A stretch of 64,000 nucleotides of DNA from Marispirochaeta sp. (GTDB lineage: Bacteria; Spirochaetota; Spirochaetia; JC444; Marispirochaetaceae). Positions 32,445 to 50,163 of the stretch are shown in pieces (the first letter of the stretch is position 1; each line of letters begins with the position of its first letter). The position numbers and the translations under genes were made by a program. Where the stretch lies: assembly GCA_963676835.2 (NCBI GenBank), contig CAXXFF010000002.1:1088001-1152000 (forward strand), given 5' to 3'. The notes below the pieces were generated by a model that had not been told where the DNA came from, ran no database searches, and was given only the letters and a program-made list of their open reading frames with translations.

Positions 32445-32448
32445 TTTA

Positions 32449-33615: not shown

Positions 33616-33672
33616 AATTTTCGATCCATATACTATAGTGGTACCGTTACTTTAATAGCTCAGGGGTGGAGT

Positions 33673-34290
33673 GTGCAAGACAAAATAATCCGGAATACCT
33701 GGCTGAACCGGCTGCGGAATTATATTCTTTCCAGCAGATACCTTCCTTTCCTGGTAATCATACCGGCCGCTTTTTTCAATGTCATGCTGCAGCGCCTCAA
33801 CGTGGGACTTTCCCTGCCCTTTTTCCTGGACTCTATTTTTACTGCCATAACTGCTGCCCTGTTCGGTATTTTCCCCGGTGTGGCTACCGGGATTATTACC
33901 AATCTATTTATGGAGATTGACCTCGATTTCGGGGGCCTTTACTGGCAGTGGGGGCTCTGTAATGCCGCTACCGGATTCATCGTAGGTGTTGCCGCGAAAA
34001 AAGGGTATTTTTCCAGCTTCACCTATTTTCTGATTACCGCCGCCGCCGTAACCCTGGCAAACTCCCTTCTCGGGGCTGTTATTGCTGTTTATGTTTTCGG
34101 CGGAGTAACCGGTTCCCCTGTGGATTTTATAGTCATGGGCCTTGCTGCCGCCGGAAGGGATATCTTCTCCAGCGCATTCCTTGCCCGGCTGATTACCAAC
34201 CTTGTGGATAAATCCATTGCCGTGGGTATTGCTTTCGGGGTGTACCGCTGGGTTCGGGGTGGTTTTTACCAGGCTCAACCACTATTTTAA
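33673..34290 (+). CDS. ECF transporter S-component-like membrane protein
   Basis: LPFFLDSIFT, G..PG..TG..TN, NLVDK; about 6 TMs. Confidence 0.7.
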   Translation: MQDKIIRNTWLNRLRNYILSSRYLPFLVIIPAAFFNVMLQRLNVGLSLPFFLDSIFTAITAALFGIFPGVATGIITNLFMEIDLDFGGLYWQWGLCNAATGFIVGVAAKKGYFSSFTYFLITAAAVTLANSLLGAVIAVYVFGGVTGSPVDFIVMGLAAAGRDIFSSAFLARLITNLVDKSIAVGIAFGVYRWVRGGFYQAQPLF

Positions 34291-34335
34291 AAAGGTGGAT
34301 TTTTAAGTTGCACTGATTTTTCTTCGCAATAATGA

Positions 34336-34740
34336 TTAAATTTCCCAGTTTTCAACACGGAGTCCGGGGATACCGGAAAAGTCCTTATGATTCAGGGTAG
34401 CCAGAATGCATCCCTGGCTCAGTGCGGTAGCGGCGATGCAGAGGTCGATTACCGGACGGGTTCTGCCTGACCGGATGGAATCCGCCTGTATTTCAGCAAA
34501 AATCTGTGCTTCGGGAAGAGAGAAGTCCAGAATAGGGATGCGGTCTTTCAGTATAAGTTCATACTTTGACTTAAGACGCTTACTGTCTACTATCTGTATT
34601 CCCTGCAGCACTTCCATCTCGCAGAAAACTGAAATACAACAGGCGGTATCACCTGTGTTTTTCCATTTTTCAATAACACTGTCCAGGGGCCTGCGTTTGA
34701 GTGGCTGGCTGTAGACCGATGTATCAAGCAGATATTTCAT
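34336..34740 (-). CDS. vapC: VapC/PIN toxin
   Basis: YLLDTSV, E, IDLCIAATA, TLNHKDF..IPGLRVENW. Confidence 0.92.
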   Translation of the reverse strand: MKYLLDTSVYSQPLKRRPLDSVIEKWKNTGDTACCISVFCEMEVLQGIQIVDSKRLKSKYELILKDRIPILDFSLPEAQIFAEIQADSIRSGRTRPVIDLCIAATALSQGCILATLNHKDFSGIPGLRVENWEI

Positions 34741-35003
34741 GTGTCTGATTCATCAAACGGATTAAGGTAAGGGTTTTGTGTTCTTTCGGGGAGCTGTATT
34801 TCTTCGCAATCTTCTTGTGAGGCGGTGTATGTTTCCCAGGCCTCCCAGACTTCTGATGCGGGTATGTTTTCCTGTTGAACAGGCACAATTCGAACCAGCG
34901 GTTTGCCTTTCCTGGTAACCATTACGGTTTCGCCATTGCGGGCAACATCATCACAGATTTTTGAGAGACGGGTTTTTGCTTCGAAAATACCTATTTGTCT
35001 CAT
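34737..35003 (-). CDS. Phd/YefM antitoxin
   Basis: IFEAKTRLS..GETVMVTRKGKP.VRIVP; ATGA overlap with the toxin. Confidence 0.92.
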   Translation of the reverse strand: MRQIGIFEAKTRLSKICDDVARNGETVMVTRKGKPLVRIVPVQQENIPASEVWEAWETYTASQEDCEEIQLPERTQNPYLNPFDESDT

Positions 35004-35120
35004 ATGTTAAAGTTACTGGTTGGCTGGTCTGTTGTCAATGGTTTCGTCAGGGGAATATGGAGCAGGAGAAGGACGTTTTTGGGTCTATTCGCTGTTTTAA
35101 TTATTGAAAAAAAGCCCTGC

Positions 35121-35516
35121 TTACGGGCCGGTAATGCTGCGGGTTATGTCGGGAAAAGCCTTCAGCAATTTGCGGTCTGCAGTATAGAGCGGTACTCCAA
35201 GTCCTGCGGCGGTATCCACAAACTCGCAGTCATAGGCAGAACAGCCGCTTTCCGCTGATAGTCTCAAAACATTGCCTGGTACCGGCTGAAACTCTCTTCC
35301 CTTCACTAATTGAGCAGCTTTATTAAAGATGTCGATTGTCTCGTCCGTTGTGAGAATACCTTTTCGTACATACAGGGTAAGCACATTTCTGAACTCACTC
35401 TGCCAGAGCATAGGGGCCGCCCATTCACTATCCTGCAAATAAAGAGTTTCAACTGCTGTGCTGAATGGAGATGACAAAAACAGATAGGAGATAACATTTG
35501 TATCGACAACAATCAT
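35121..35516 (-). CDS. vapC: VapC/PIN toxin
   Basis: IVVDTNV, SEFRN, SAYDCEF, TADRKL. Confidence 0.92.
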   Translation of the reverse strand: MIVVDTNVISYLFLSSPFSTAVETLYLQDSEWAAPMLWQSEFRNVLTLYVRKGILTTDETIDIFNKAAQLVKGREFQPVPGNVLRLSAESGCSAYDCEFVDTAAGLGVPLYTADRKLLKAFPDITRSITGP

Positions 35517-35755
35517 TTGCGGCCGCTGTTTTTAGCTTCGTTCAGCAGTTCTTCTGTAAGGGGTAATTCGGCTGTTCGTGCCCGGTAGGATCGGGCAGTC
35601 TCCAGTACTGTTTCCCGGTTTGTCTGACTATGTCCGATTCCTTTTTCTATATAATAGATAATCTGACTGTTCAGGCTGCGGTGGTCTTTTTCTGCGGACT
35701 GTTTCAGAGCTGTGTAGATGGGATCGGGGATGTTTTTCAGGGTGATGTTTGCCAT
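35513..35755 (-). CDS. FitA/Arc-like ribbon-helix-helix antitoxin
   Basis: MANITLKNIPD..Y..LK..A...HRSLNSQI; ATGA overlap with the toxin. Confidence 0.88.
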   Translation of the reverse strand: MANITLKNIPDPIYTALKQSAEKDHRSLNSQIIYYIEKGIGHSQTNRETVLETARSYRARTAELPLTEELLNEAKNSGRK

Positions 35756-35861
35756 ATTTGGCTCCTATAATTTTGACATTGGAACCTATATGGTGTAATT
35801 ATGGTTCCCCTTGTGTTTGCTGTCAAGTAATTCGGTAAATCCGGCGTGTTAGCCATGGCGC

Positions 35862-35900
35862 TTGTGAGAATCTCACAGTCAAATTGTGAGGTTCTCCTAT
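35862..35900 (+). repeat. 39-bp direct repeat, copy 1 (palindromic upstream block)
   Basis: TTGTGAGAATCTCACAGTCAAATTGTGAGGTTCTCCTAT. Confidence 0.9.
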
Positions 35901-35956
35901 GTTTTTTAAACATGAAATAACCAAAAATAAAATGAAATGCTTTATTTGGAGGTTGT

Positions 35957-37042
35957 ATGAAGAGAATACTACTGTTTTTTGCAGTTGCAGTACTGGTTTT
36001 GTCCGGGTTTTCCTGTGCCGGCGGCGGTGCCGGGGGAGGAGATACCAGTACAGATCTCTGGAGTGATGCGGGAACCACAGATTCCAGTATTAGTCTGAGT
36101 AACGAAGATTTGAATCTTTCGGCGTCTGTATCATCGATTCTGTCCGGTTTTGCTCAGGATATCGGCAGTTCCGATGACCGGGTTTACTTCAGAAGTTCTG
36201 ATGTAGAGTTCTGGTCTATCTCCGGGATTGACGATTTGGACACGATCTGTTCTCAGAAATATAAAGTCGGGAATTCTGCTCCGGGAGAAGGGTCTTTGGA
36301 ATATGACCTTGGTGATCTTCAGGAGTCTGTTGTTTTTCGGCCTTATTCACGGGTTGCTACTCAACTTGGAGCCGGGTTGAATGAAGACTGGGATACGAAT
36401 GTTGCCAGCTATAAAAGTGACGGAAACACTAATATCAATCTTGCGAGACTTGATATTGGGGATGGAACTATATCGTTTATTATTAATGGTGAGCGTACCG
36501 GGGTCTCTCACAGCGATGGTTCCGGCTCTTCCTGGATATATACTCCTGAAGAAATTGAGGCACTGTGGAATGACGGTGACAATGGTGGCCAATACACCTA
36601 TGAAGAATATCAATACTACCTGGAGCTGGCTGAAAATTACAGTGGTATAGATGCTAACAGTATTTTCTTTGTGGATGAGCAGTTTCTTTCGGAGCCATTT
36701 CTTGCGGAACGTGAAATTCAATACGACATTGTTGACGGGACTTTAACAGCATCCGATTTCTCAATAGCCACAGATGAGTTCAATTTTATTAAACGTCTTT
36801 TTTCAAACAGCAATGAGGCACAGGACGAAGTAACAGAGTCAACGATTGATGTAGATGGTGCTCTGCTGGTTCCCACGACTCCGGTTGATATCAGTGGTTT
36901 TGATCCTTCATCGGAGGCTTTGAAAATTGTAATTTCATGGAAAATGGCCAGTGCTGTTCGTGGAAGCAGTGATGGTTACCGCATGGATGACCGGATTGGC
37001 GGGACTTGTCTGGATTTTGATGTTGAACTTGTGATTGAGTAA
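35957..37042 (+). CDS. Acidic hypothetical lipoprotein
   Basis: RBS GGAGG; signal peptide ending GFSC followed by a Gly-rich tether. Confidence 0.8.
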   Translation: MKRILLFFAVAVLVLSGFSCAGGGAGGGDTSTDLWSDAGTTDSSISLSNEDLNLSASVSSILSGFAQDIGSSDDRVYFRSSDVEFWSISGIDDLDTICSQKYKVGNSAPGEGSLEYDLGDLQESVVFRPYSRVATQLGAGLNEDWDTNVASYKSDGNTNINLARLDIGDGTISFIINGERTGVSHSDGSGSSWIYTPEEIEALWNDGDNGGQYTYEEYQYYLELAENYSGIDANSIFFVDEQFLSEPFLAEREIQYDIVDGTLTASDFSIATDEFNFIKRLFSNSNEAQDEVTESTIDVDGALLVPTTPVDISGFDPSSEALKIVISWKMASAVRGSSDGYRMDDRIGGTCLDFDVELVIE

Positions 37043-37132
37043 CTGTCTTTTCTGTCTGGCATCTTTGCTTCAGACAGCATTTTTTAAGCAGTTGGCGGAG
37101 TCGTGTAGCTACAAAGCAAATTCCCTTATGTC

Positions 37133-37248
37133 TGCGGTGGTTGAGCGTAGTCGAAACCACCTGTTTCGCTGCGGGGATGCGGTTTCGACTTCGCTCAACC
37201 ACCTGTTTCGCTGCGGGGATGCGGTTTTGGCTCCGCTCAACCACCGCA
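37133..37248. repeat. REP/BIME-like composite palindromic element
   Basis: 15-bp terminal IRs TGCGGTGGTTGAGCG/CGCTCAACCACCGCA; internal 42-bp tandem duplication; unit GGTTGAGCG.AGTCGAAACC in both orientations. Confidence 0.85.
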
Positions 37249-37308
37249 TTTATCAGGTGAGTGTTGTCAGTCGTCCTCACTCCACTAAGGTTCTGTCTGT
37301 CTTTGTTT

Positions 37309-37347
37309 TTGTGAGAATCTCACAGTCAAATTGTGAGATTCTCCTAT
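37309..37347 (+). repeat. 39-bp direct repeat, copy 2
   Basis: TTGTGAGAATCTCACAGTCAAATTGTGAGATTCTCCTAT, 38/39 identical to copy 1. Confidence 0.9.
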
Positions 37348-37409
37348 ATCTCTACCCCTGTCTTTTCGCGAAAATAGAAGCAAATGGTTCGATTATCCGG
37401 AGTTCGTCT

Positions 37410-38141
37410 ATGAAAGTACATTCCGATCCATGTCTGCAGAATCTCTTTCGCGGCTGGCAGGGCGCGGCGCCTTCCGGGGCGGGGGTTATCTTCCTCGGCC
37501 TCGATGCCAACTGGCCGGATCCCCTGATTAACCTTGGTAACAGGATTATTGATATCTATGAATACCTCGAAGACGGTGCTGCCTGGTGGCACCGGACGGG
37601 GCTGCACCATCCTCTGGCGGATATGAAGGATGTTCCCGGATATTCTTACCACAGAAACTTCCGCAAGCTGGAAATACCGAAGGAGATGGCGGAGGAAATA
37701 AGCTTTGTGGAACTCTACGGGTATGCAACTACCGGGAATCACAATGAAGGGCCGGTAAAAATTGAAACTGTGGCAGACTGCTCCGATGAGCCGCAGGAAA
37801 TACCCGGGGCAAATGTTTTAAACAACTGCTGTCATCATAGAAACCTGGAACGCTGGCTCTGCCGGGACGATGTCCTGGTGTGTCTGCCTTATGGTCAGGT
37901 GGCGAATCTTGCGAAACTGGTTCCCTGTATGGCGGAAAAACTGCCTGCTCCCGGTGAGGTTTTGCGGAATGAACTGTGGCGCCGTAAAAACATCTGTGTT
38001 CATACCCATTTATCCGCAAGTTCGGGGATTTCTGATAAACATATAAACGAGATTTCCGCCCTGATTCATTCGTGGATAACCTGGCGGATAAATAAAAAGA
38101 TAGAATCAACGCTGCAGGAGTTTTCAGCTTCCGGGCGGTAA
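37410..38141 (+). CDS. Hypothetical protein
   Basis: ATG at 37410 after GGAG; the 5' part of the tracked ORF runs through repeats and is probably non-coding. Confidence 0.65.
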   Translation: MKVHSDPCLQNLFRGWQGAAPSGAGVIFLGLDANWPDPLINLGNRIIDIYEYLEDGAAWWHRTGLHHPLADMKDVPGYSYHRNFRKLEIPKEMAEEISFVELYGYATTGNHNEGPVKIETVADCSDEPQEIPGANVLNNCCHHRNLERWLCRDDVLVCLPYGQVANLAKLVPCMAEKLPAPGEVLRNELWRRKNICVHTHLSASSGISDKHINEISALIHSWITWRINKKIESTLQEFSASGR

Positions 38142-38361
38142 AAATTGTATGAGGTGCAAGTTCTTTCTGTTTAGCCACCGCGATAGTAAAGCAATAGAGA
38201 TATGCGTAGCGCTGAATTCGCATCACCGTGACTGGAACAAAGTGATCAGTTTGCCGCAATAATCATTTAAAAAGTTTGCAGCAGTCCGGATAATCCGCCA
38301 ATAATAAAGTAGTACCATCAAAAGTATCTATCCGGAAAATCAACACTGGTGAGAGGATTGA

Positions 38362-41097
38362 ATGCAACGTTTTGTAATACTGTTTCTGCTGACTGTTTTT
38401 ATTTTCTGTCCGATATTTGGAGATGACACCCAATCTCGAACCGCCCTGATAATCGGCAACTCAAACTATGCATCTTCCCCCCTGAAAAACCCGGTGAATG
38501 ATGCCTCCGCAATGGCGGAACGGCTCTCCACCCTCGGATTTGATGTTACCCTGAAAACGGATGTAAGCCTTTCCGAAATGGAGTCTTCTGTACGGCGCTT
38601 TGCGGCGGATCTGGAAAAAAATAAAGGCGTGGGGCTTTTTTTCTACGCCGGCCATGCGGTTCAGGTGGACGGCTACAACTATCTTATTCCCCTGGGCCCC
38701 GGGATAGAATCGGAAGAGGAAATCAAGTTTCATGCCTATAACGCAGGTCAGATACTGGAGAGTATGGAGGGAGCCGGGAACGGCGCCAATCTGATATTTC
38801 TGGATGCATGCAGGGATAATCCCTTTGCCGCATCTTTCCGCAGTTCCAGCCGGGGACTCCGAATGGTGGAAGCTCCTTCGGGGTCTCTGATTGCCTATGC
38901 CACGGCGCCGGGTAAAACAGCTGCAGATGGGGAAGGTTCCAACGGAGTGTTTACTGAAGCTCTGCTGAAACACATTGAAGAACCGGAAATCGATGTGGAG
39001 GTTCTGCTGCGGGATGTCCGGGCTGAAGTGATTGAAAAGACAGACGGGAAACAGACTCCCTGGACTTCGTCATCCCTGATTACTCCCTTCTATTTTGCAG
39101 ATTCCGCCCTGATCCTCTCCCGCATAGCTGCCCGTAAAGAGGCGGTTTCCGCAGAGCTTGTTACGATCAACGGTGAGATTGAACGACTTACCAGGGCACG
39201 CAATTCTGCTGTCTCGGATTCTGAACGCAGAAAGCTTGAGCTCGAGCAGAATGCCCAGGCTGCAAAACTGGAAGCCGCCCGTCTTGAGGCTGAACAGCTG
39301 CAGCAGGAAGAAGCACGGCAGAAGCTTGAGGCGGAGCAGCGGGCTAAAGAAGAGGCTGCCAGAACCCGGGCCCTGGAAGAGGAAAGGTCTCAGCAGGCGA
39401 ATCTTCTCGCGGAAGCTGAGCAGAAGCGGAAGGAGATGGAATCCCTGAAGCAGGCGGGAGAAGATCCTGATCTGCTTCTGGATAACATCCATTCCCTGGA
39501 GGAGGCGATTAAGGATATTGAACGCTCCTTCAATTCGGCCTGGTCTGCAATATCCCGTGAAATATCTTCTACTTATCAGCTGAAAAAAGAAGCTGTTGAT
39601 ACCATTGAAATGGACCCCTGGGAGAGTGATGCGGAGTTTAATGAACGCATCGGGAAGCTGAAAAACAACCTCACTACCCAGGAGCGTAGTGAGCTATCCA
39701 GTCGCCGTGTTTCCCATGATAAAAGCCTGGAGGAACAGCTTGCAGACCTGAAGCGCCGTCTGTCAGAGGCTGTCCGTTCTCTGGAGACAAAACGCTGGAC
39801 CCTTTCCGGCAGCGAAGTAAATCTGACACCCTATGATTTTAACCGGGATACCAAAGAGTGGGCATTCTGTGTTGAATCGCTCGAGCGCTCGGTGCCCTTT
39901 AAAACTGTTCTTTCAGTCTCGTTGGCCGAAGCGGAAGACCTGCGTACTGCGTATCAGATTATTGATACTGCAATTAAAAGCTCTGCCCTGTCGGGCAGGA
40001 TAGAATATGCCTACGATCACCGGACTGAGTATTCCGGTTCTGTTTCCATGTATGATCTGCAGGTAAAATCTGTACGAATAATTGATCTGCTGGATAACAA
40101 CAGCATTGTTGTTCAGGATAACGCCTCTACAATTATCAGCACCTTTGGAGGTATTGATCAGCGGAAAGAGCCGCTAAACCGGTTTTCCAATATACGATTC
40201 TGGTGCAGTGATACTCAGCTTGATGTCTATTATAAAGGTGCCTTACTTGGTACGACCCCCTTCAGTACCAATCTGTTTCTGGAGGGACAGTATCCACTGC
40301 TGTTAAAGACAAAAAACGGAAAGACTCCCGGAGGCACCCGGGTTGTACAGGTTCCCGGAGGATCAAATAGAAGTGTCCAATTGGAAACTCCCTTTGTGTA
40401 TGTGCAGGGAGGGTTCTTCAAGATGGGGGACCCCCGGGGATCTGCGGATGAAAAACCGGAGCATAGTGTATATGTTTCTTCTTTTATAATGGCCAAATAC
40501 GAACTTACAAAAGGCCTACAGCATGAAGTATTGGGAAGGTATGGCTCGGTGAGCGAAGCAGACCGTGAAAAGCCTGCCACCTATATTTCCTGGATTGATG
40601 CTCTTGAATTCTGCAATAAACTGAGTAATCAGGAAGGGCTGGAACCTGTGTATACCGTCAATGGCAGTTATGTGCATTGGGATAAAGATAAAAACGGTTA
40701 CCGGCTGCCAACAGAAGCTGAATGGGAATATGCTGCCAGGGGCGGTGCGTTGAAGGATGATGTAAATTACTCCGGCAGCAGTGATTTAGGCATTGTCGGT
40801 TGGTATAAAAATAATAGTCACGAACAGCTTCAACCCGTGGGGCGGAAGAGGCCCAACGGCTTGGGGCTCTATGATATGAGCGGTAATGTCTGGGAGTGGT
40901 GCTGGGATCGATATGGAGAATATACTTCTTCCACCGCTTCGGATCCTCAGGGGCCCTATTCCGGTGACAGCCGGGTACTTCGAGGCGGGGATTATAATCA
41001 GAGTGCCTCCTATTGTGATGTATATAACAGGTACGATAAAGAACCGGGAGAGCGGTCCACCACAATAGGCCTGCGGCTGGTGCGGAATGCGGAGTAG
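38362..41097 (+). CDS. Secreted caspase-like (peptidase C14) protein with coiled coil, PEGA-like and FGE-sulfatase (SUMF1) domains
   Basis: Signal peptide; ALIIGN.NY, YAGHA, LDACR; RLPTEAEWEYAARGG, GLYDMSGNVWEW, RGG..G.RLV. Confidence 0.9.
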   Translation: MQRFVILFLLTVFIFCPIFGDDTQSRTALIIGNSNYASSPLKNPVNDASAMAERLSTLGFDVTLKTDVSLSEMESSVRRFAADLEKNKGVGLFFYAGHAVQVDGYNYLIPLGPGIESEEEIKFHAYNAGQILESMEGAGNGANLIFLDACRDNPFAASFRSSSRGLRMVEAPSGSLIAYATAPGKTAADGEGSNGVFTEALLKHIEEPEIDVEVLLRDVRAEVIEKTDGKQTPWTSSSLITPFYFADSALILSRIAARKEAVSAELVTINGEIERLTRARNSAVSDSERRKLELEQNAQAAKLEAARLEAEQLQQEEARQKLEAEQRAKEEAARTRALEEERSQQANLLAEAEQKRKEMESLKQAGEDPDLLLDNIHSLEEAIKDIERSFNSAWSAISREISSTYQLKKEAVDTIEMDPWESDAEFNERIGKLKNNLTTQERSELSSRRVSHDKSLEEQLADLKRRLSEAVRSLETKRWTLSGSEVNLTPYDFNRDTKEWAFCVESLERSVPFKTVLSVSLAEAEDLRTAYQIIDTAIKSSALSGRIEYAYDHRTEYSGSVSMYDLQVKSVRIIDLLDNNSIVVQDNASTIISTFGGIDQRKEPLNRFSNIRFWCSDTQLDVYYKGALLGTTPFSTNLFLEGQYPLLLKTKNGKTPGGTRVVQVPGGSNRSVQLETPFVYVQGGFFKMGDPRGSADEKPEHSVYVSSFIMAKYELTKGLQHEVLGRYGSVSEADREKPATYISWIDALEFCNKLSNQEGLEPVYTVNGSYVHWDKDKNGYRLPTEAEWEYAARGGALKDDVNYSGSSDLGIVGWYKNNSHEQLQPVGRKRPNGLGLYDMSGNVWEWCWDRYGEYTSSTASDPQGPYSGDSRVLRGGDYNQSASYCDVYNRYDKEPGERSTTIGLRLVRNAE

Positions 41098-41180
41098 CTT
41101 AACCTGACACGTTCAGAACATGACTGGAGCTGTCGGTAATTCGTCGAGCTGCAAATGGCAGTTCTGCGTGTAAATAGAGA

Positions 41181-41210
41181 ATAAATTTTTTTAATCAATC
41201 TTTTTCCCAC
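41181..41210 (+). promoter_or_regulatory. Shared upstream motif, copy A
   Basis: ATAAATTTTT-TTAATCAATC-TTTTTCCCAC. Confidence 0.6.
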
Positions 41211-41282
41211 TGACTGAAATATATGCCGGAGTACGGAACCAAAGCTGCCGTGGGGAGACGCAATATATCAGGAGAAGATTAT

Positions 41283-43454
41283 ATGAATATAACAGATGTG
41301 AAGGAAAGTATTAAAGCATTAAAGAATCCGGATCTTGATATTGGCGTTCTTGAGAAAAAGATGAGCGAAATTGCTCAGTTTTTTCATACAAACGGGGCGC
41401 CGGATAATAATGAAATCTTTTCCTGGTTCGGCGACCTTGTTCCACAGTATGCAGTGAGTGACACTGACAGCTGCACCAGGCTGAAGGATATTTTCGGCGA
41501 AATATTTTCCCGACGGGGATCACGGCGGGAGCGCAGGCTAAGGCTTCGTGAGCTTGAGGCTCTTCTCGATTTTTATCGCCGCTACAGTTCCGCCTCTACG
41601 GCTCTATTTGAATGGCTTAACGAAAACGGTGAGGGCGGGTTGGATATCAGCAGCCTGAATCACGAACTCTTCAGTATAGAAGAGGGAACAGAATCAGACC
41701 TGCAGGCTGGTTTCCTTTCTCTCCTGGCAGAACTATCACCCCGCTTTTCTGTAGAATGGATAGAGCAGATGCAGGCTCTGCCTGTACAGGGGAAACTCAC
41801 CCTCCTTGAGCTGCCACCGCTTGAGGAGCTGACCGGCATACTGTTTGAGCTTCAGAATAGAGCTCGAAGGGAGGGCTTACTTGCTTTGGAGGATGTTCTG
41901 GAGCAACTGCCGCCGCTGTTAACCGCTTTTTTCCGGCTGGTAGTGGACGGGACACCCCCGGACCTTCTCGATTCAGGTATGGACCGATATTTTTCCAGCC
42001 TGGAACGGCGACTGAATGAGTATCAGGAGATTGTTGCCGATGGGGCGCAGATGGTTGCGAAAGGGATAAACCGGATGGTAATCGAAGAGCTCTGCCGGAA
42101 GCCTTCAATGCTCAACCTGTTTTCCAGTCCCGATGAGGCTGCTTCGATGGAGGGCGGCGCCAGGAACGGTTCTGGTTTGAATAGTGAACAGGATTCTATC
42201 ATCAATATTCTGATTTCAATGGCAGATGTCACACGGAGGGAAGGTTTGCTGGCTCTGCAGTGGTTCCCCACAGAGGGGCTGCCCGATGCATTAATAAACC
42301 TGCCCGAAATAATCCTCGAGTGTGCTGATGATTCAGATTTGTTAGGCTATATGCTCGCCAGGATCTTCTCTCAACTTAAAGATACTCTCTTTCATGCCAA
42401 AATGATTACCACCAGTATGATCCGGATTATCTATCAGGGGGAAAGCCCGTCTGCTTCGGAGGATCTTTTTAAGATTATCTCCGGCAGGACTGAAGGGACA
42501 GCCGGATTTTCCGGTATAGCGGATATGGTGGTGGATTGTGTGCGGAACAGTGAGCAGCCTTTTCAGCTCCTGCTCCATCTGCAGGATTACTGTACTGCTG
42601 CAGCCGACTATGCGGGAGCACTGCGGCGTTTAAGCCATATGGCAGAGGATAAAGAACTAACGGCACTTTTAACAGCGCAAATTGAAGAGCATGGAGCCTC
42701 TTTTCCCTCTCTGGTAAGAGATAGGAAAGCCCAGCTAATTTGTATTAACGGTGAAGAAGAGGCTTCCCTCAGGCGTATAGAAATGCAGATTAATACGTAT
42801 AAGATTGAACAGGATAAACGTGATGCGGAAAAAACACCCGCATTGGAGAATCTTCATCTGATTGCAGATGCGGAAAAACTGGAGCAGTTTTCCCTTTTTC
42901 TACTGGAGAGTTATGCCCGCCGGCAGCAGGAGCAGGAGAGAGTTTTTTCTGAGTTAAGGAATGCGGAAAGAGCCCGGATACAGACCGCCGCCGGAGAGAT
43001 CTTCGGCCGGGAATTACCGGTTTTTGAATTTACCGGTGAGGATACAGAAATTACCTATGCAGAAAAACTCTTTCCCCGCAGCCGTGTGGGGATGGCGGCA
43101 CTTATTCGTGATCGATTTTCCGATGAGGACGTGCAGAATCTTCTGGCAAAGATGACTGTGTTTAATGATGTTCTGCTGCTGAATGATCGCGATATGCAGA
43201 AGCTGCTGCGGGAGCTAGCCATTGAAGATCTCGCTCTTGCTTTAAAAGGGGCCGACGAAGAGGTTGTTGAAAAGTTCTACAGGAATATCTCGCAGAGAGC
43301 AGCCGCCGTCCTTCAGGAAGAAATGGTGTATATGGGTCCTGTTGCGGTTACGAAGGTTCGGGAGGCTCAGGATCGCATACTTCAGATTTTGCAGAAGCTT
43401 GAAGAGCAGGGTGAAATTACACTCCCCTGCCCGGAAGGTGAAGGATGGGTGTAG
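41283..43454 (+). CDS. Soluble protein with two MotA-like cytoplasmic segments and a FliG C-terminal domain
   Basis: ARREGLLALE..LVVDG and TRREGLLALQ; C-terminal FND...L.DRDMQK.LRE...LALALKGA..NISQRAA..LQEEM..MGPV...V.EAQ..I...LEEQGEI; RBS AGGAG (alternative start 41223). Confidence 0.82.
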   Translation: MNITDVKESIKALKNPDLDIGVLEKKMSEIAQFFHTNGAPDNNEIFSWFGDLVPQYAVSDTDSCTRLKDIFGEIFSRRGSRRERRLRLRELEALLDFYRRYSSASTALFEWLNENGEGGLDISSLNHELFSIEEGTESDLQAGFLSLLAELSPRFSVEWIEQMQALPVQGKLTLLELPPLEELTGILFELQNRARREGLLALEDVLEQLPPLLTAFFRLVVDGTPPDLLDSGMDRYFSSLERRLNEYQEIVADGAQMVAKGINRMVIEELCRKPSMLNLFSSPDEAASMEGGARNGSGLNSEQDSIINILISMADVTRREGLLALQWFPTEGLPDALINLPEIILECADDSDLLGYMLARIFSQLKDTLFHAKMITTSMIRIIYQGESPSASEDLFKIISGRTEGTAGFSGIADMVVDCVRNSEQPFQLLLHLQDYCTAAADYAGALRRLSHMAEDKELTALLTAQIEEHGASFPSLVRDRKAQLICINGEEEASLRRIEMQINTYKIEQDKRDAEKTPALENLHLIADAEKLEQFSLFLLESYARRQQEQERVFSELRNAERARIQTAAGEIFGRELPVFEFTGEDTEITYAEKLFPRSRVGMAALIRDRFSDEDVQNLLAKMTVFNDVLLLNDRDMQKLLRELAIEDLALALKGADEEVVEKFYRNISQRAAAVLQEEMVYMGPVAVTKVREAQDRILQILQKLEEQGEITLPCPEGEGWV

Positions 43455-43516
43455 TGCCCTGACAACGGCGGAGTCAGGGGATGCCATTTCGACTCCCTGA
43501 AAGGTTTTGAAAACTT

Positions 43517-46198
43517 CTATACATTCACATCAAACCAGAACGCCGCCGCTTCCTGCTCAATCCCGGCTGTCATCCCACGCCATATCGCGCCGTACTGCAT
43601 CTTCTCCGCGGCAAACTCCATGTTCAGTTCATTTGTCAGCCGGAAGACGCGGTATTCTCCGGGATCATGTTCACCGGTCAGGTTATTGCGTATTATCCTG
43701 GGTACATACAGCGGGGCGTCGCCGTCAATAAGGTGATATTCGCCGTACCCGGGAATCCCTGGTCCTGCAGCGCTGTCATTTGCCCTGAAGACTGTATCCA
43801 GAATGGGTTGCAAGGTTTCATCCGGCAGTTCCTGCTCCATCAGCCACTCATAGGCCATTCTGTTGGCTGCAGCTTCTTCAAGCCGGCAGAAGTATCCGGC
43901 CTTGTCCGCATGCATGTGGCTGCAGGCATCGTTGCCAAGCACTGTTTCCATAAAAGTGTGGAATAGTTCATGCACTGCAATTGAGCGTATAAGGGGCTCT
44001 ATACTCTCTCTATCCAGGCCTTGTCTGTGAATCAGTTCTATTATTCTGACTGCATTGAAGTATATTCCCGAGCGGTGCTTACGTTCATTGTCCAGGGAGC
44101 AACGCAGCAGATAGCAGGCGAAATAATCGGCGGTTTCTTCCGGGCCGGTTTTATCAAAAACTATCGGTTCCCTGCCTGCAGGTTCGCTCTTCAGCCGGTT
44201 GAGTATGGTTCCTATCTGGCCGGTAGATTCTGCAGCCCGTAATTTTCTGGGGTCCGGGCCTTCAAAAATTTCCCGTATCATCTGGTGCTTCCGGCTGGGG
44301 TCTTTTCCCGGTTCCGGGCTGCTCATTTGTTCAGCTTTCTCTGCAGATAGAGCCCGGGCTTTCTCCAGGGACTCTTCCAATGCGGAACTTCCGGCGGTGC
44401 TCTGTTTAAAAAGAGATACCACCTCCGACAGACTTAAGGGCCCCGGCTGGCGTGGTGATACCGGGGGCTGTTCCGGCTTTTCCGGTTCTGCCGGAATAAG
44501 CGGTTCTGCTGCTGCCGGGTCTTTTTGCCCGGGTAAATCAAGGGTGCTTTTCATGGTAAAGGTGGTCAGCCCTTTTATGTCTGGAGGCGCTTCGGGAGCT
44601 TTAAGGTCTGCCAGAACGCTGTTTTCTTCTTTGAATCCAGCAAGAAAACCAAGGAGTTCATGGTCTTCCTTTTTTTCAGCCTCCTCTCTCAATGCTTTTG
44701 CCAGTCTGTAGGCGACGTTTGGAGGTTGACAGGCTTCTAAGAGGCCTGTCAGTCCGTCGAGGTTGAAAAATCCGCCGTCCTTTCCATCTTCACCTTTTTC
44801 TTCCTGAATAAAGGATTTGAGAGATCCGAAGTTGATTCGGAACTTCCTGTCCTCCTCGGAAATGTCTTTTCCACTGGCAAAGGGGTTGCTTGTGGCTGGA
44901 TTGTCCTGCAGGGTGGCTCTCATTTTGTTCTGGCAGGATTCAAGTGAGTAGCCCGTCCGTTCCGCGGTGAGCAGAATATCAGTGCCTAATAGCTTTACAT
45001 AGGTGCTCTGATGATCAAGAAGCTTTGTGACAACCTGGAGCTGGTTCTGATTAATTTTTTTCTCACTGACTATTCTAAGCATCAGCGGGGTAAAGGCTTC
45101 GGTAACTGTGTGGTAGGCAGACGGTTTGTGCAGACTTCCGGGAAAGGGTCTGCTTAAAAATTCTATACCCGATATAAACGGATCGGGAACTGCAGTACTG
45201 CCGGATAGAATGAACTCCGCAAGCCCGAGCTGAAGCAGGGCAGCCTCTTCGTAGGTATTGTTTTTTAAGGGCGATTGATTTTGAAGAATCCTAACCAACG
45301 GCGGGTTTCTCCGGATGGTATCACTGTTGAGATACAGGCCCGCAAGCCGAATAAGATGATTTCGCAGCAATGGCGAATCGCCTGTAAGCAAGTTTGAGAA
45401 CTCAGTCAGGGGGATTGGAAAATCTGCACCGGTATTTCCGGCAACGGTAAAAACCCAGTCCAGTTCGGTATCGCCGATCCTGCCGGACACAAGCAGATCA
45501 ATCCAGCCCCGAACCCGGCGCTTAACAGTTTCAGTTGTTTTTATTCCGGCGGTATAGGCTTTGCGGGCAGCGTTGAGAAAGGATGTGTAGTTTTCGCAGC
45601 GCAGCTTAAGCACATCTTTCCAGGACTCTATTTCCGGGTAGATCCTTAAAGGGTCGTTCCAGCCGGATATGGCGGCGAAAATACGGTCCCACACCCAGGA
45701 GCTCTGTTCTGTTGCTTTTGCTGTGCGGATAAGCTCTTCAATTTTGTCATCCATGTCGGAAGCGGAAAGCATAAGGTTTATGGCGGCCCAGTATTTCCTT
45801 CCCCGCAGCCGTTCTTCCTCTTCGGTTTCCGGATGAGCACAGAAGCGTACCAGAAACAGCACATCATCATCGGTTTCCGCTTCTCCGAAGAGGCCGAAAA
45901 TCTCTTTGCTGATCTCTATGGATTGGGCCGCAGTATAGTAAAGGTTCAGCAGCGCCTTTTCGCTGAGAAGGTCGTTTCCGGCAAAAAGACAGGCTCCCAG
46001 AAATTCTGTAATATTTTTTTCGGGTACGGATTCGCTTTTCCCGGTGTTGTAGATTTCCTTTTGGATTTCCAGCAGTTTTTCTTCGTCCTTCTCAGTGGAA
46101 AACCCGAGGCTTGCAAGAAGCTCAATTGCCGGTTCTCTGTTATTCTCAGGCTTGTCCGGGGAAAACTTTATTAATGACATTGAAGCCTCCTGCGCCAT
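43517..46198 (-). CDS. Large hypothetical protein: helical N-terminal region, Pro-rich linker, C-terminal HExxH metallopeptidase-like domain
   Basis: 893 aa; IAVHELFH (HELFH at 43958-43972) followed by LEEAAAN. Confidence 0.7.
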   Translation of the reverse strand: MAQEASMSLIKFSPDKPENNREPAIELLASLGFSTEKDEEKLLEIQKEIYNTGKSESVPEKNITEFLGACLFAGNDLLSEKALLNLYYTAAQSIEISKEIFGLFGEAETDDDVLFLVRFCAHPETEEEERLRGRKYWAAINLMLSASDMDDKIEELIRTAKATEQSSWVWDRIFAAISGWNDPLRIYPEIESWKDVLKLRCENYTSFLNAARKAYTAGIKTTETVKRRVRGWIDLLVSGRIGDTELDWVFTVAGNTGADFPIPLTEFSNLLTGDSPLLRNHLIRLAGLYLNSDTIRRNPPLVRILQNQSPLKNNTYEEAALLQLGLAEFILSGSTAVPDPFISGIEFLSRPFPGSLHKPSAYHTVTEAFTPLMLRIVSEKKINQNQLQVVTKLLDHQSTYVKLLGTDILLTAERTGYSLESCQNKMRATLQDNPATSNPFASGKDISEEDRKFRINFGSLKSFIQEEKGEDGKDGGFFNLDGLTGLLEACQPPNVAYRLAKALREEAEKKEDHELLGFLAGFKEENSVLADLKAPEAPPDIKGLTTFTMKSTLDLPGQKDPAAAEPLIPAEPEKPEQPPVSPRQPGPLSLSEVVSLFKQSTAGSSALEESLEKARALSAEKAEQMSSPEPGKDPSRKHQMIREIFEGPDPRKLRAAESTGQIGTILNRLKSEPAGREPIVFDKTGPEETADYFACYLLRCSLDNERKHRSGIYFNAVRIIELIHRQGLDRESIEPLIRSIAVHELFHTFMETVLGNDACSHMHADKAGYFCRLEEAAANRMAYEWLMEQELPDETLQPILDTVFRANDSAAGPGIPGYGEYHLIDGDAPLYVPRIIRNNLTGEHDPGEYRVFRLTNELNMEFAAEKMQYGAIWRGMTAGIEQEAAAFWFDVNV

Positions 46199-46334
46199 GA
46201 ATTATAGTCATATAGTTCCATTGGTAAAATAGTCGGGGAGCATTCATATTTACGGCAGAATTTTAGATACAGCAAAGAGTGAACTCCTTACCGCCGATGC
46301 CGACTTTGATGCACTGCTTAAAAGGCGCGCTCCT

Positions 46335-47066
46335 GTGTCTGATCTTGCCGACTGTATCCGTACACGTTTTTTTCCCGTTGCATTTCTGTATGCCCATACA
46401 ATTCTCCGCCGCAGATTCTCCGGAGAAGAACTCTATGACCGCTCGGCGGAGCTGGCGCAGAAGGGGATAAATGATCAGCTGCACAGGCTTGCAGCTGGAG
46501 AGTTCAACTTTGCCGGAAGAAGTAAATACTCTTCTTACCTCTACGGCATTCTTGTAAAAATGGTAAACGCCCGGGTCAAAACTCCTGTCCCGATTATGCG
46601 AAAAGGATTCCCCGCCCATGAGGTGTATCAGATGGCCTTTGGCGGATGGTCCGACCGGGAAATTCTGTCCGAGATGGTCTTTAACCGTGGAGCGCAGGAA
46701 GCTGCAGTAAAGAAAGCCATTGCCGACACACGGAAATACCTGGCGGAAAAGAGTCCCAAAGAATATGATGCGGATATTACCCTTGAATCCTACGATGCAA
46801 TACTCGAGGAGCCTGCCTTGGGCAGGGAACCGGGAACCCGGAGTTCTGCCCTGGATGATGTTATTCATGCGGAAACCTATGAAGCTCTGCATGATGCCAT
46901 AGATTCCCTGAACGATACCGAAAGGCAGCTTATCGAAGACCATTTCTTTATGGAGCAGCCCCTTAAGGAAATCGGGGCAAGGCTTTGTATTACAAATCCT
47001 GTGTACGAAAAGAACAAAGCTCTTCAGAAAATGGGCAGCAGTCTGAGAGACCGTCTTCCGGAATAA
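46335..47066 (+). CDS. Atypical sigma-70/ECF-like factor
   Basis: Region-4 HTH LHDAIDSLNDTERQLI...FF.EQPLKEIGARL....KALQKM; region-2-like SKYSSYLYGI; start uncertain (frame open from 46233). Confidence 0.7.
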   Translation: MSDLADCIRTRFFPVAFLYAHTILRRRFSGEELYDRSAELAQKGINDQLHRLAAGEFNFAGRSKYSSYLYGILVKMVNARVKTPVPIMRKGFPAHEVYQMAFGGWSDREILSEMVFNRGAQEAAVKKAIADTRKYLAEKSPKEYDADITLESYDAILEEPALGREPGTRSSALDDVIHAETYEALHDAIDSLNDTERQLIEDHFFMEQPLKEIGARLCITNPVYEKNKALQKMGSSLRDRLPE

Positions 47067-47083
47067 ACTCCGAGAATCCCGCA

Positions 47084-49258
47084 TCATGCAGCTCCGGAGA
47101 AACCAACAGGCCGGGAGATTCCGCCCTGTTTTTCTTTCACTTCCTCTTCGAGTTCATGTATGGCCTCTTCGATAGCGGGCTTGTCGATGCCGGAGAATAA
47201 GAGACGCTCTGAGGCTGCCTTGAAGTCTCCGGGAGTGAGCTGAAGAAGGGAATCAAGCCTTTTTACGGTTTCCCTGTCTTCAGTGTCTAAAGAGCATTCG
47301 GGAAAATACTTCCTGAACAGGGTCATTCGTCCTTCCCGGTCCAGAGGATGAAATTCAACCTTGAAGGTGAAGCGCCGCATTACCGCGGCATCCAGGATTT
47401 CTTTGAGGTTGGTGGTGCAGAAGAAGAGACCGTTGAACTCCTCCATGCAGGTTAACAGTTCATTTACCTGGGTTCGCTCCCAGGAGTTGCGGGCGTCGTT
47501 CCGGTCCGCAAGAAAAGTGTCCACTTCATCGATGAGGAGAATGCTGTTTGACTCCTCCGCTTCCTGAAAGGCATCCCGAATATTTATCTCTGTTTCGCCC
47601 ACGTACTTGCTTAAAAGGTCGGAAGAGCGCCTGGTTATAAGGGGCAGTCCGCTCGTTTCTGCAACATGTTTTACGAAGGCGCTTTTTCCGGTGCCGCTGA
47701 GACCGTACAGGAGGGTGCTGATTCCCCGGTTTATACGGCCGTCCCGAAAACCTTCGGCGGCAGTTATCAGGCGTTCCACTGGGGTGCTGGTGTTGAGGGC
47801 GGAAAGTTCATAGCGGGATTCTCCGCTTTTTACCGGGCTTATTTTTCCGCCGGTAAGACTCATGTGCCGTTTGAGGAGAGTATCCAGGGTTTCCCGAACC
47901 ACGGCTTCGCTCATCTTCTTTCTTCCTGCAATACTCTTCAGGCTCTTCAGTGCTATGGCAATCAGTCCCGGGGGAGCTTCGTACCGCCCTGCGAAATCAG
48001 CAGCCATTTCATCGGAAATCAGGTGTCCCGCCGGGCTGGATTTAATTACGGAATGCCACTCCTTCAGGCGGTGAGAGGCGCTTTTTGTTTTGAACTCCAT
48101 GGAAAAATTGAACCGCCTGAGAACCGCTTTGTGAACAGCGGAGATGGAATTGCTTATCCATACAACATGGGCCTTGTAAGCCTCCATGACTGTGATAATC
48201 CACGCTTTATCTATGCCGTCTATTTTGAACAGGGACTCTGTATTCAGCAGAAAGTCCATCTCGTCAGCAATTAAAACTGCCTGCTCCCGTTCGGCCTGGA
48301 TTATTCCCATGAGCAGGGCTGCCCGTTTTGTTTCTGTATTATCATCTACCGGCATGTTCAAAATAAAAACCTTTCTTCCCGATTCTCCCGCAAGGGAACG
48401 GGCAAGTTCAGTCTTTCCTGTTCCCGGTTTTCCATGAAAAAGAATGTGAGCAGGAACAGCCGAAGAAAGCAGTCTGGAGAGTATTTTTATATCCTGTCCG
48501 GGGATGGAGAAACTTTCGAGAGAAAATCTTTCACCCGTATCACGGCTGCTGAAAAGTCCTAATTTCAGATCCATGTTTTTGGTGAAAAAAATCTGCTGAA
48601 CCTGGTCAATAAGGCCTTTTTCAGTAAATTGCTGAGCGTTACTGTTCTCTAACAGCCCGCTGGACCCGATGCTTCCCTGTGGTTTTGTCCGTTTCATTAA
48701 TTCATGGAGGGGCAATCCTGCAGCCCGGGCTGCCAGGTCATTACTCAGGGAGGTGCGGCCGTTGTTGAAGATGTTATCCAGAATACTTGAATGTTTGTAG
48801 AAATAGAGAAGGGCCAGGATCGAGAGGTCTTTATCATCAAAGCGAAAAACTGACTTGAGCTGTTCAAACTGCCGGGGATAGGCGGATACCTGTTCACTGT
48901 ACCGGGGAGTGCCATCCCAGATATCTATGAGAATTTTCATTGTGGCAACTGCTGAGAGTTTACACTGTTTATCTCTCCACATATCATCAATGGTGTCTGC
49001 TATGGAGTTCGGTGAAGAGAGGTTGCAGTTCATTAATTCTGCATAATCAATCTCCTCTTTGCCCTTGTAGGATGATACGGTTTTAACCAGTCTGCGCCTG
49101 TCAGAGAGGGGCATCAGCTTGAGGTAGTCTTCCAGAATACTCATGTCCATTTTAAATGCACCCAACAGGTTTGACATGAAGTAGCGTATTACCGGTGCAA
49201 AGCGCTGCATGGCGTTGGTGATCCTTCGACGTGTTCTCTGGTTTCCGGTTGCAGTCAT
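47084..49258 (-). CDS. AAA+ ATPase with two AAA modules
   Basis: GKPGTGKT/LIADEMD/RRF and GLSGTGKS/LLIDEVD/TTN..D.A.MRRF; RBS AGGAGG. Confidence 0.92.
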   Translation of the reverse strand: MTATGNQRTRRRITNAMQRFAPVIRYFMSNLLGAFKMDMSILEDYLKLMPLSDRRRLVKTVSSYKGKEEIDYAELMNCNLSSPNSIADTIDDMWRDKQCKLSAVATMKILIDIWDGTPRYSEQVSAYPRQFEQLKSVFRFDDKDLSILALLYFYKHSSILDNIFNNGRTSLSNDLAARAAGLPLHELMKRTKPQGSIGSSGLLENSNAQQFTEKGLIDQVQQIFFTKNMDLKLGLFSSRDTGERFSLESFSIPGQDIKILSRLLSSAVPAHILFHGKPGTGKTELARSLAGESGRKVFILNMPVDDNTETKRAALLMGIIQAEREQAVLIADEMDFLLNTESLFKIDGIDKAWIITVMEAYKAHVVWISNSISAVHKAVLRRFNFSMEFKTKSASHRLKEWHSVIKSSPAGHLISDEMAADFAGRYEAPPGLIAIALKSLKSIAGRKKMSEAVVRETLDTLLKRHMSLTGGKISPVKSGESRYELSALNTSTPVERLITAAEGFRDGRINRGISTLLYGLSGTGKSAFVKHVAETSGLPLITRRSSDLLSKYVGETEINIRDAFQEAEESNSILLIDEVDTFLADRNDARNSWERTQVNELLTCMEEFNGLFFCTTNLKEILDAAVMRRFTFKVEFHPLDREGRMTLFRKYFPECSLDTEDRETVKRLDSLLQLTPGDFKAASERLLFSGIDKPAIEEAIHELEEEVKEKQGGISRPVGFSGAA

Positions 49259-49289
49259 TATTCCTCCTGAATATCTTCTGTTCTCTTTA

Positions 49290-49319
49290 GTGGGAAAAAG
49301 CGGCTGAGAAAAAAACTTT
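49290..49319 (-). promoter_or_regulatory. Shared upstream motif, copy B
   Basis: Minus strand AAAGTTTTTT-TCTCAGCCGC-TTTTTCCCAC. Confidence 0.6.
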
Positions 49320-49331
49320 TTCCGGGTTTTT

Positions 49332-49547
49332 TCAGAAACCCAGCATGTTCCGTTCCCAAAAGGGGCTGAAAACTCTCTTTGTCCATGAATCTGAATGATG
49401 CTGAAGTCTGCGTCCGCAGACGGGGCAGTTTCCGTTTTTGCCGTAACAGCTTGAACAGCGGATAATTTCAGGGTGAAAGCTGCAGCTGTAGTGCTCGTCG
49501 TTGGCGGTGTCGATCTGTGTTTTGCAGTCGATACAGGATTCGCTCAT
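49332..49547 (-). CDS. Small Cys-rich putative zinc-finger protein
   Basis: CIDC, CSFH, CSSC, CPVC; RBS GGAGG. Confidence 0.7.
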   Translation of the reverse strand: MSESCIDCKTQIDTANDEHYSCSFHPEIIRCSSCYGKNGNCPVCGRRLQHHSDSWTKRVFSPFWERNMLGF

Positions 49548-49608: not shown

Positions 49609-49662
49609 TTTCAGGCGGTGATTAGGTGGAGAAACGTGACTGAAAACAGAGAGCTTGATTAT

Positions 49663-49730
49663 TGCGGTAGTTGAGCGGACATGTACTGAGTAGAGCTTGC
49701 ACTGAGCGCGGTCGAAGTGGTCGAAATCAC
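49663..49730 (+). repeat. Nested, degenerate copy of the 37133 REP family
   Basis: TGCGGTAGTTGAGCG (14/15 match) ... CACTGAGCGCGGTCGAAGTG ... GTCGAAATCAC. Confidence 0.65.
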
Positions 49731-49731
49731 A

Positions 49732-50163
49732 TCACGCCGGATCAATGACCTCAAAGAATCCGAATTCCTCAAAATCTTTTACATTCCTTGTATGGAATTC
49801 CTTTACGCCATTCTCTTTCAGGACAACCGCCAGCTTTGCATCAAAGCACCTCCGTGGAGGAAACTGCGGGTTTTTCCACAGGGTATCCAGACTTTTCATC
49901 ATATCCGGCTCCCAGGCGCAACGGAGCCAGCCGCTTTTGTTGCGGTACCAGTCCACAGCACCGGCAGCTTGTTCCGCATTAAGGGGTTTTTCCAGCACCG
50001 TGCTGTTACGCAGCAGCCGGTACAGTTCAAACCAGACCTGGTCAGCTATTATCCACTCCCGGGGCCGGCTCAGAGCCTTTTCTATCAGTGTGCGGCAACT
50101 ATCGTATTCTCTGCAGTCGCTGTTCAGGGCATAAAACAGAACATTGGTGTCGAGGCTTTTCAC
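49732..50163 (-). CDS. vapC: VapC/PIN toxin
   Basis: SLDTNVLFYA, E, FDAKLA, TRNVKDF. Confidence 0.92.
   Translation of the reverse strand: MKSLDTNVLFYALNSDCREYDSCRTLIEKALSRPREWIIADQVWFELYRLLRNSTVLEKPLNAEQAAGAVDWYRNKSGWLRCAWEPDMMKSLDTLWKNPQFPPRRCFDAKLAVVLKENGVKEFHTRNVKDFEEFGFFEVIDPA

Follow-up and report, generated by a model that had tools for sequence, protein, structure and literature searches.

A gene of Marispirochaeta sp. encodes a soluble protein in which, as judged from sequence profiles and a predicted structure, two MotA cytoplasmic units without their membrane helices are joined to a FliG C-terminal (FliG_C) domain in a single chain. On this evidence the chimera is real, with a putative functional role, and it belongs to a large modular family, which a first-pass annotation of this DNA had overlooked. 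Both building blocks are known; the family and its architecture are apparently undescribed, and a full-text literature search, extending to few subscription journals and to main texts rather than supplements, found no description of a natural soluble MotA-FliG_C protein. This locus contributes a distinct long subfamily, the division of the MotA Arg and Glu over two units in tandem, and a congener that lacks the gene.

Domain composition of the protein

The gene occupies 41283..43454 on the + strand of the window (the whole 64,000-nucleotide stretch of DNA analyzed) as a single open frame of 723 codons encoding 723 residues, with AGGAG 8 nt 5' of the ATG at 41283; another possible start, the ATG at 41223, would give 743 residues. 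One public contig set spans 38000-46500 unbroken and with zero differences, but is possibly the same DNA and hence not independent. A scan for promoters and terminators turned up no signal particular to this gene. The product is predicted to be all-helical and soluble, and the earlier claim that it has no transmembrane helices is borne out: a Kyte-Doolittle scan of the 723 residues finds no hydrophobic or transmembrane helix, and the 19-residue mean peaks at 1.16, whereas the MotA of this genome reaches 2.53 (a comparison of hydropathy only). The four transmembrane helices of MotA/PomA are therefore lacking, as judged from hydropathy and from the unit profile described below, which skips MotA residues 144-209.

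FliG_C is the sole domain returned by a Pfam search of the protein, with its core at residues 615-714 (43125-43424, + strand; PF01706, E 3.6e-30). In the AlphaFold2 model the structural match takes in a FliG C-terminal region of residues 586-716 (43038..43430, + strand; Z 17.6, 2.3 Å over 129 residues to 4fhr_B) and so starts about 30 residues ahead of the Pfam core; 88 residues of FliG_C overlay 1qc7_B with a deviation of 0.9 Å. Compared with the genome's own FliG, 51 of 107 residues are identical. Four of the five charged-ridge residues of FliG (K264, R281, D288, D289, and R297) are kept, as K655, R672, E679, and E680, and A688 occupies the R297 position, that of the GPVR Arg; this is the pattern of a retained Lys, Arg, and Glu pair and a lost GPVR Arg that had been read at first pass. 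The domain thus has the features of a FliG C-terminal torque domain, but the protein is not a whole FliG: the whole-protein model TIGR00207 scores 102.9 against a cut-off of 226.7, and no N or M domain (FliF and FliM binding) is found by Pfam.

A 95-position profile, built from relatives without the 723-residue protein itself, detects a membrane-less MotA cytoplasmic unit 1 at residues 182-273 (41826..42101, + strand; 57.5 bits; pLDDT ~80) and a degenerate unit 2 at residues 305-397 (42195..42473, + strand; 15.3 bits); the top score among 1000 shuffles of residues 1-610 is 8.7 bits. The motifs ARREGLLALE and TRREGLLALQ begin at residues 194 (nt 41862) and 317 (nt 42231), where they had been placed before. 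The two MotA-like segments of the first-pass annotation are therefore present, but each is a whole domain that also includes the C-terminal part following TM4. On the host MotA the same profile splits, aligning to 77-143 and 210-244 and leaving out the TM3-TM4 hairpin, and a second profile likewise matches solved MotAs in two pieces (8ucs_C, 79-147 and 219-248, E 5e-27), whereas each unit here is matched as one uninterrupted piece. We infer from these profiles that each unit is a MotA cytoplasmic domain from which the TM3-TM4 membrane helices have been excised.

The Arg/Glu pair of MotA is complete in unit 1, which retains R195 and E203 (equivalent to Arg90 and Glu98) as well as D222 of VVDG, but not in unit 2, where R318 is kept and Q326 replaces the Glu98 equivalent. 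The GDNPR Arg is missing from both units (M265 and S390), and the Asp of this motif is replaced in unit 1 (I262). Five NCBIfam MotA/MotP/PomA models match residues 171-254, all far below their cut-offs, the best being PRK08124 (E 1e-8, in two stretches). No Pfam family covers the unit, for which the best match is MotA_ExbB (E 0.005, in 3 of 16 members), and the Atlas clusters nearest to both units are unnamed proteins of 140-192 residues (score 0.90-0.91).

The AlphaFold2 model, from a 12-row alignment, has a mean pLDDT of 64.7 and a pTM of 0.41, at which the packing of domains within the chain is not predicted; units 1 and 2 show the same helix pattern, in a block of pLDDT 65-87. When the 723-residue model is searched, seven MotA/PomA entries give Z of 9.1-12.7 and the next unrelated entry 7.4, although Z under ~13 is ambiguous for helical bundles with this tool, and Foldseek matches to MotA/PomA have probabilities of 0.80-0.95 but non-significant E of 0.5-0.9. 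The MotA cytoplasmic fold proposed for the segments is thus supported by profiles and model together, with the profiles carrying most of the weight. Residues 387-474 match helical repeats at Z 5-7 and look generic. A single-sequence fold of the protein was uninformative (pLDDT 40), and a complex prediction of units 1-2 (18 rows) with FliG_C (41 rows) scored 0.02 in both runs against a mark of 0.32, with the controls unfolded, and carries no weight either way.

Three further regions complete the chain. The N-terminal helical region (residues 1-170; 41283..41792, + strand) has no family match and low model confidence, and shows a weak resemblance to the closest relative, P0004. A low-confidence linker of ~31 residues (42102..42194, + strand; pLDDT <50 at residues 274-299) separates the two units. 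Between unit 2 and FliG_C lies a helical region (42474..43037, + strand) with long helices at 457-517 and 530-574 and a P-x-L-x-N-L-H motif, which is common to the subfamily only and may serve as an arm that brings FliG_C back.

A modular family and the accessory locus

A 50%-cluster search gave 4967 matches, of which the best 150 were examined. MotA units occur in 46 of 154 collected proteins, every one with FliG_C, although this set was ranked mainly on FliG_C and so cannot demonstrate co-occurrence. Twelve layouts are represented, including 19 MG (one unit, the commonest), 6 GMM, and 5 MMG, and five is the highest unit number, matching MotA5 and found in 4 of the 46 (P0019, P0022, P0034, and P0072, with exactly five tandem units and one or two FliG_C). 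We therefore consider a metagenome scan for two MotA motifs alone, at membrane-less spacing and with FliG_C not required. It yielded 62 loci, in 51 of which FliG_C is fused (12) or encoded by a neighboring same-strand gene (39, of which 33 lie upstream of the MotA-unit gene); many loci are related, so these are not 62 independent events. The remaining 11, several of which are short contigs, showed no FliG_C. The 723-residue protein fits this family, whose mark is a membrane-less MotA unit with FliG_C either fused to it or encoded next to it. In eight loci (L155, L156, L157, L159, L161, L188, L191, and L198) a two-gene cassette of FliG_C and then the MotA unit, both stand-alone, adjoins carA/carB, an EAL gene, and mostly also a hemerythrin gene; these loci are related.

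The FliG_C domains of the family mostly keep their charges. R281 is present in 36 of 41 stand-alone FliG_C genes, which were not pattern-selected, and in 44 of 52 fused domains, with an acid at 288 in 40/41 and 46/52, respectively. The GPVR Arg is lost from 30 of the 52 fused domains (22 keep it), against none of 71 canonical FliGs, a biased set comprising the loci, of 80, that passed the filter and were found via a neighboring motif. Other fusion partners of MotA units are LRR, Sel1, and DUF4116 repeats; L239:3-9189, for example, has three clustered MotA-unit genes, one encoding FliG_C-LRR-unit-unit and the other two degenerate units with long repeat regions (DUF4116 in the one scanned). By eye, P0050 and P0094 look like FliM-FliG fusions, and stand-alone FliM-like genes lie near family genes in L153, L246, and L249, which suggests a broader reuse of C-ring parts.

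Seven to nine proteins with 23-33% identity have the layout and helical linker of the 723-residue protein. This subfamily comprises P0004, P0005, P0007, P0008, P0015, and P0024, the near-copies P0154 and P0156, and a unit-less form, P0021; the closest relative, P0004, is 33% identical over residues 52-714 and likewise lacks some FliG charges. Ten relatives, seven of them in the subfamily, come from contigs of 2.5-21 kb and fall into clusters of one or two members; just one of the ten has a name. The subfamily linker is absent from all ORFs of the 62 metagenome and 13 genome loci, leaving no second neighborhood for the exact layout. Other searches added little: word-indexed protein searches gave 1, 2, and 1 relatives besides the query; a named-genome scan with P0005 found no MotA unit in the 80 loci kept of 197, the seven inspected being canonical fliG operons; a metagenome scan with P0004 gave no match; and a full-length profile run on 300 other genomes of the phylum, with three candidates scored per genome, found only FliG-sized proteins among the 150 of 298 matches listed.

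Full-span units at E <=1e-22, a threshold that misses divergent units, are found in 12 of 400 other genomes of the phylum and, at E 1e-22 with the same limit, in none of 401 genomes of the phylum to which G448 belongs. All 12 carriers and this genome encode flagellin, in a phylum that is nearly all flagellated (FliG-type matches in 289 of 301 genomes). The host genome itself has a canonical MotA, two FliGs, and flagellins; its FliG is similar to Treponema FliGs and, like the second FliG, points to a spirochete. The gene was not found in five congeners, in which the only MotA is canonical. It lies within a 10.2-kb accessory block (39191..49417) that is missing from a congener, G002, where on one contig with flanks 75-86% identical window position 39190 abuts 49418 base to base, and where the upstream caspase-FGE gene is shortened to 285 codons. 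The absence is most simply a deletion, which implies that the block is dispensable and the gene accessory. The G002 region compared contains nothing that matches window 31901-38268 either.

The locus is nonflagellar, as first described: no flagellar gene was found among 17 ORFs scanned in the window and L010 or among the further Pfam-scanned neighbors. The direct neighbors are the caspase-FGE gene and an 893-codon ORF on the other strand without a Pfam or NCBIfam match, and nearby are an MCP gene and three PIN-domain genes (34336-34740, 35121-35516, and 49732-50163) flanking the region. The span 43517-49258 of the block holds the 893-residue ORF, a sigma-70 region 4 ORF (46335-47066), and an AAA ATPase gene, whose best NCBIfam match is anti-phage IteA (E 3e-34, far below cut-off), and is possibly a defense-like unit. 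A repeat cluster at 37124-37257 comprises a 42-nt tandem pair and a 23-nt inverted repeat at 96%, with a related 24-nt arm at 49656-49679.

A second membrane-less MotA unit is encoded in this genome at L010:5727-8036 (G000:C2:1243726-1246035; E 1.6e-6, full span), at the N terminus of a 769-residue Sel1-repeat protein without FliG_C. Both unit genes sit immediately 3' of a same-strand caspase-domain (Peptidase_C14) gene (window 38362-41097 and L010:2289-5690), one of eight such genes in the genome. Caspase adjacency is not a general trait, since no Peptidase_C14 match occurs among the neighbors scanned elsewhere (122 cluster representatives of 190 ORFs plus 8 more, and 56 of 115 ORFs around the genome matches). 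Among neighboring ORFs scanned there is likewise no MotB/OmpA or MotA_ExbB family member, and the gene at 41283-43454 lacks the adjacent B-subunit gene of MotA/PomA. FliM-like genes accompany family genes in 4 of 62 metagenome and 2 of 13 genome loci, FlhA-type and FliD-like genes do so once each, and a carA/carB-EAL-hemerythrin block lies beside 7-10 related loci; the remaining neighbors are miscellaneous.

A possible self-closing clasp

In the MotAB-FliG_C structure, FliG_C is described as binding only between two closely spaced MotA domains (PMC11302681). Arg90 and Glu98 are reported on opposite faces of MotA (10.1101/2020.05.12.089201), with Asp289 and Arg281 given as their partners on FliG (PMC7564593; PMC12505986). 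Given pairwise docking and opposite faces, two units and one FliG_C would make exactly one docking site, to which each unit lends one residue. Within the subfamily (seven aligned members), unit 1 keeps the acid in 7/7 and the Arg in 3/7, and unit 2 the Arg in 6/7 and the acid in 2/7, with P0005 having an acid one position later; the Fisher p values for unit 1 versus unit 2 are 0.021 (acid) and 0.27 (Arg), post hoc and on seven related sequences, and in four members unit 2 is seen by alignment only, not by profile. In two-unit proteins (13 related proteins overlapping the subfamily, with one gapped unit dropped per position), the first unit has an acid in 12/12 and Arg/Lys in 7/12, and the last has Arg/Lys in 11/12 and an acid in 10/12. 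This complementary retention of Glu and Arg in the aligned sequences is suggestive of a single intramolecular cleft.

Our best reading, held tentatively, is that the protein closes on itself like a clasp and, once open, may serve as a motor decoy or clutch. Units 1 and 2 would pack like adjacent MotA subunits to form a pincer cleft, to which unit 1 would supply the Glu and unit 2 the Arg, and the chain's own FliG_C, on its long helical arm, would dock there and close the protein. We think it fairly probable that cognate binding of this kind, between the units and their own FliG_C, occurs within the chain. On opening of the clasp, perhaps through residues 1-170 and 398-585, the free FliG_C could occupy clefts of the cell's MotA pentamer or, alternatively, the free unit pair could cap the FliG of the C-ring; fewer stators would be engaged, and the protein would be an accessory, dispensable decoy or clutch. 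The autoinhibited switch suggested at first pass has thereby gained a structural rationale in the need for a MotA pair and the complementary residue loss. A link to nonflagellar MotAB-like complexes, also suggested there, finds no support, since no MotB/OmpA family occurs among the neighbors scanned and PMC12505986 treats the MotA-FliG interface as specific to flagellar stators.

This reading is supported by the joint travel of FliG_C and MotA unit, seen in 51 of the 62 loci for which the MotA unit was the sole criterion, by the torque-helix charges mostly kept in fused FliG_C domains, by a unit number that tops at five, as in MotA5, and by a host with canonical MotA, two FliGs, and flagellins, together with FliM-like neighbors in the family. 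The relaxed GPVR Arg suggests, from these alignments, a clasp that would be static, unlike the moving contact that makes torque. Several observations count against the reading. The GDNPR Arg, listed among rotor-contacting residues (10.64898/2026.10.14.759253), is missing in both units and the GPVR Arg in FliG_C; the commonest layout (19 MG of 46) has one unit and would form no cleft alone; the locus is nonflagellar, the gene was not found in 5 congeners, and full-span units were seen in just 12/400 other phylum genomes; some units occur in fusions with LRR, Sel1, and DUF4116 repeats; and with a pTM of 0.41 the model does not predict domain packing.

A close rival, which we rate only a little lower, is that the unit and FliG_C bind each other as a private lock-and-key with no effect on the motor, having been exapted in fast-changing accessory loci, where the pair would shut or put together cytoplasmic complexes with LRR, Sel1, and DUF4116 partners. 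Such a module would account for the free shuffling of domain order and number over 12 layouts, the fusions to repeat domains, a sporadic spread, neighbors that are mostly unrelated, and the frequent loss of the GPVR Arg from fused FliG_C domains compared with canonical FliGs; it would also fit the placement of both membrane-less-unit genes here directly after a caspase-domain gene, and the position of the units outside the spirochete-type canonical MotAs in a weak 95-column tree with low supports (the badly aligned P0004 unit 2 row was ignored). It is harder to reconcile with FliM-like neighbors in six loci and with motor-contact charges so largely retained that cross-reaction with the motor would be expected; the flagellin of all 12 other carriers and of this genome also speaks against it, although in a phylum nearly all flagellated. 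An open protein acting in trans, as a bivalent brake with FliG_C on the stator and the unit pair on the C-ring, or as head-to-tail chains, seems improbable to us. The long helices at 457-574 could, in the model, keep the ends apart, and for the one-unit forms, as for those divided over two genes (39 of 62 loci), action in trans is the sole option. The armadillo-like part of FliG stacks FliG subunits, and the FliG match extends into this part, ~30 residues upstream of the Pfam core. The N and M domains required for joining the C-ring are, however, missing, and a tethered ligand would normally outcompete one in trans, by the tethering logic described in PMC11302681.

That the gene is a decaying relic of shuffled flagellar fragments, functionless today, is more improbable still. 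In its favor are the degeneracy of unit 2, a closest relative that shares just 33% identity and lacks FliG charges too, the absence of the block from G002, and a 90% cluster with a single member. Yet the 723-codon frame is intact, seven to nine proteins with 23-33% identity preserve the layout and linker, the same exact excision of TM3-TM4 is repeated through the family, and the GC3 of 0.50 resembles that of the host motA (0.49). A recent duplication of the host motA is unlikely as the origin of the units, since in the tree the host unit falls apart from them, among the canonical MotAs (20 of 20 in one clade, support 0.87).

The torque-making MotA-FliG contact is described as transient and was visualized via an artificial fusion (PMC11302681); a natural soluble MotA pair with FliG_C would give access to affinity, kinetics, and high-resolution structure without detergent or MotB, and could reveal a new class of motility regulator or motor parts exapted as a general binding pair. 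More broadly, and we regard this as rather unlikely, bacteria may have freed the stator-rotor contact from the membrane as a modular lock-and-key, a switchable mimic disengaging stators from the rotor. The 723-residue protein would then be, with the same degree of doubt, a natural single chain of two MotA units and one FliG_C with the stator faces split between the units, and larger members might, as doubtfully, mimic up to a whole MotA pentamer. On that view it would be a regulator assembled out of the torque surfaces of the motor itself, and would offer a soluble counterpart of a contact hitherto trapped only by artificial fusion.

Comparison with known systems

By membership the protein is neither FliG nor MotA. 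It is like FliG (PF01706; 1qc7, 4fhr, 8ucs_H) in its FliG_C fold and equivalents of K264, R281, D288, and D289, and unlike FliG in having no N or M domain and no GPVR Arg and in lying outside a fliF-fliG-fliH operon. With MotA/PomA of the ARREGLLALE (TGI4-like) type (PRK08124; 6ysf, 8ucs, 6ykm, 8brd) it shares the cytoplasmic helices before TM3 and after TM4, but the four transmembrane helices are gone, one half runs straight into the other, the unit is present twice in tandem, and no motB is adjacent.

Masking of the MotA-FliG contact has its precedent in the cytoplasmic motor clutches and brakes YcgR, EpsE, and MotI. FapA of Borrelia is described as a motor clutch that masks this contact and is composed of ferredoxin-like domains and a beta-solenoid (10.64898/2026.10.14.759253); it has no domain in common with the 723-residue protein, in which Pfam also finds no PilZ-type domain. 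Unlike this protein, none of FapA, YcgR, EpsE, and MotI is known to be built from the motor's own interface domains, and a resemblance to this class in action holds only if the motor step holds. The engineered MotA-FliG_C fusion of Johnson et al. (PMC11302681, 8ucs) is alike in tethering FliG_C to MotA domains; as described there, it is artificial, membrane-bound, and pentameric with MotB, whereas the Marispirochaeta protein is natural and soluble.
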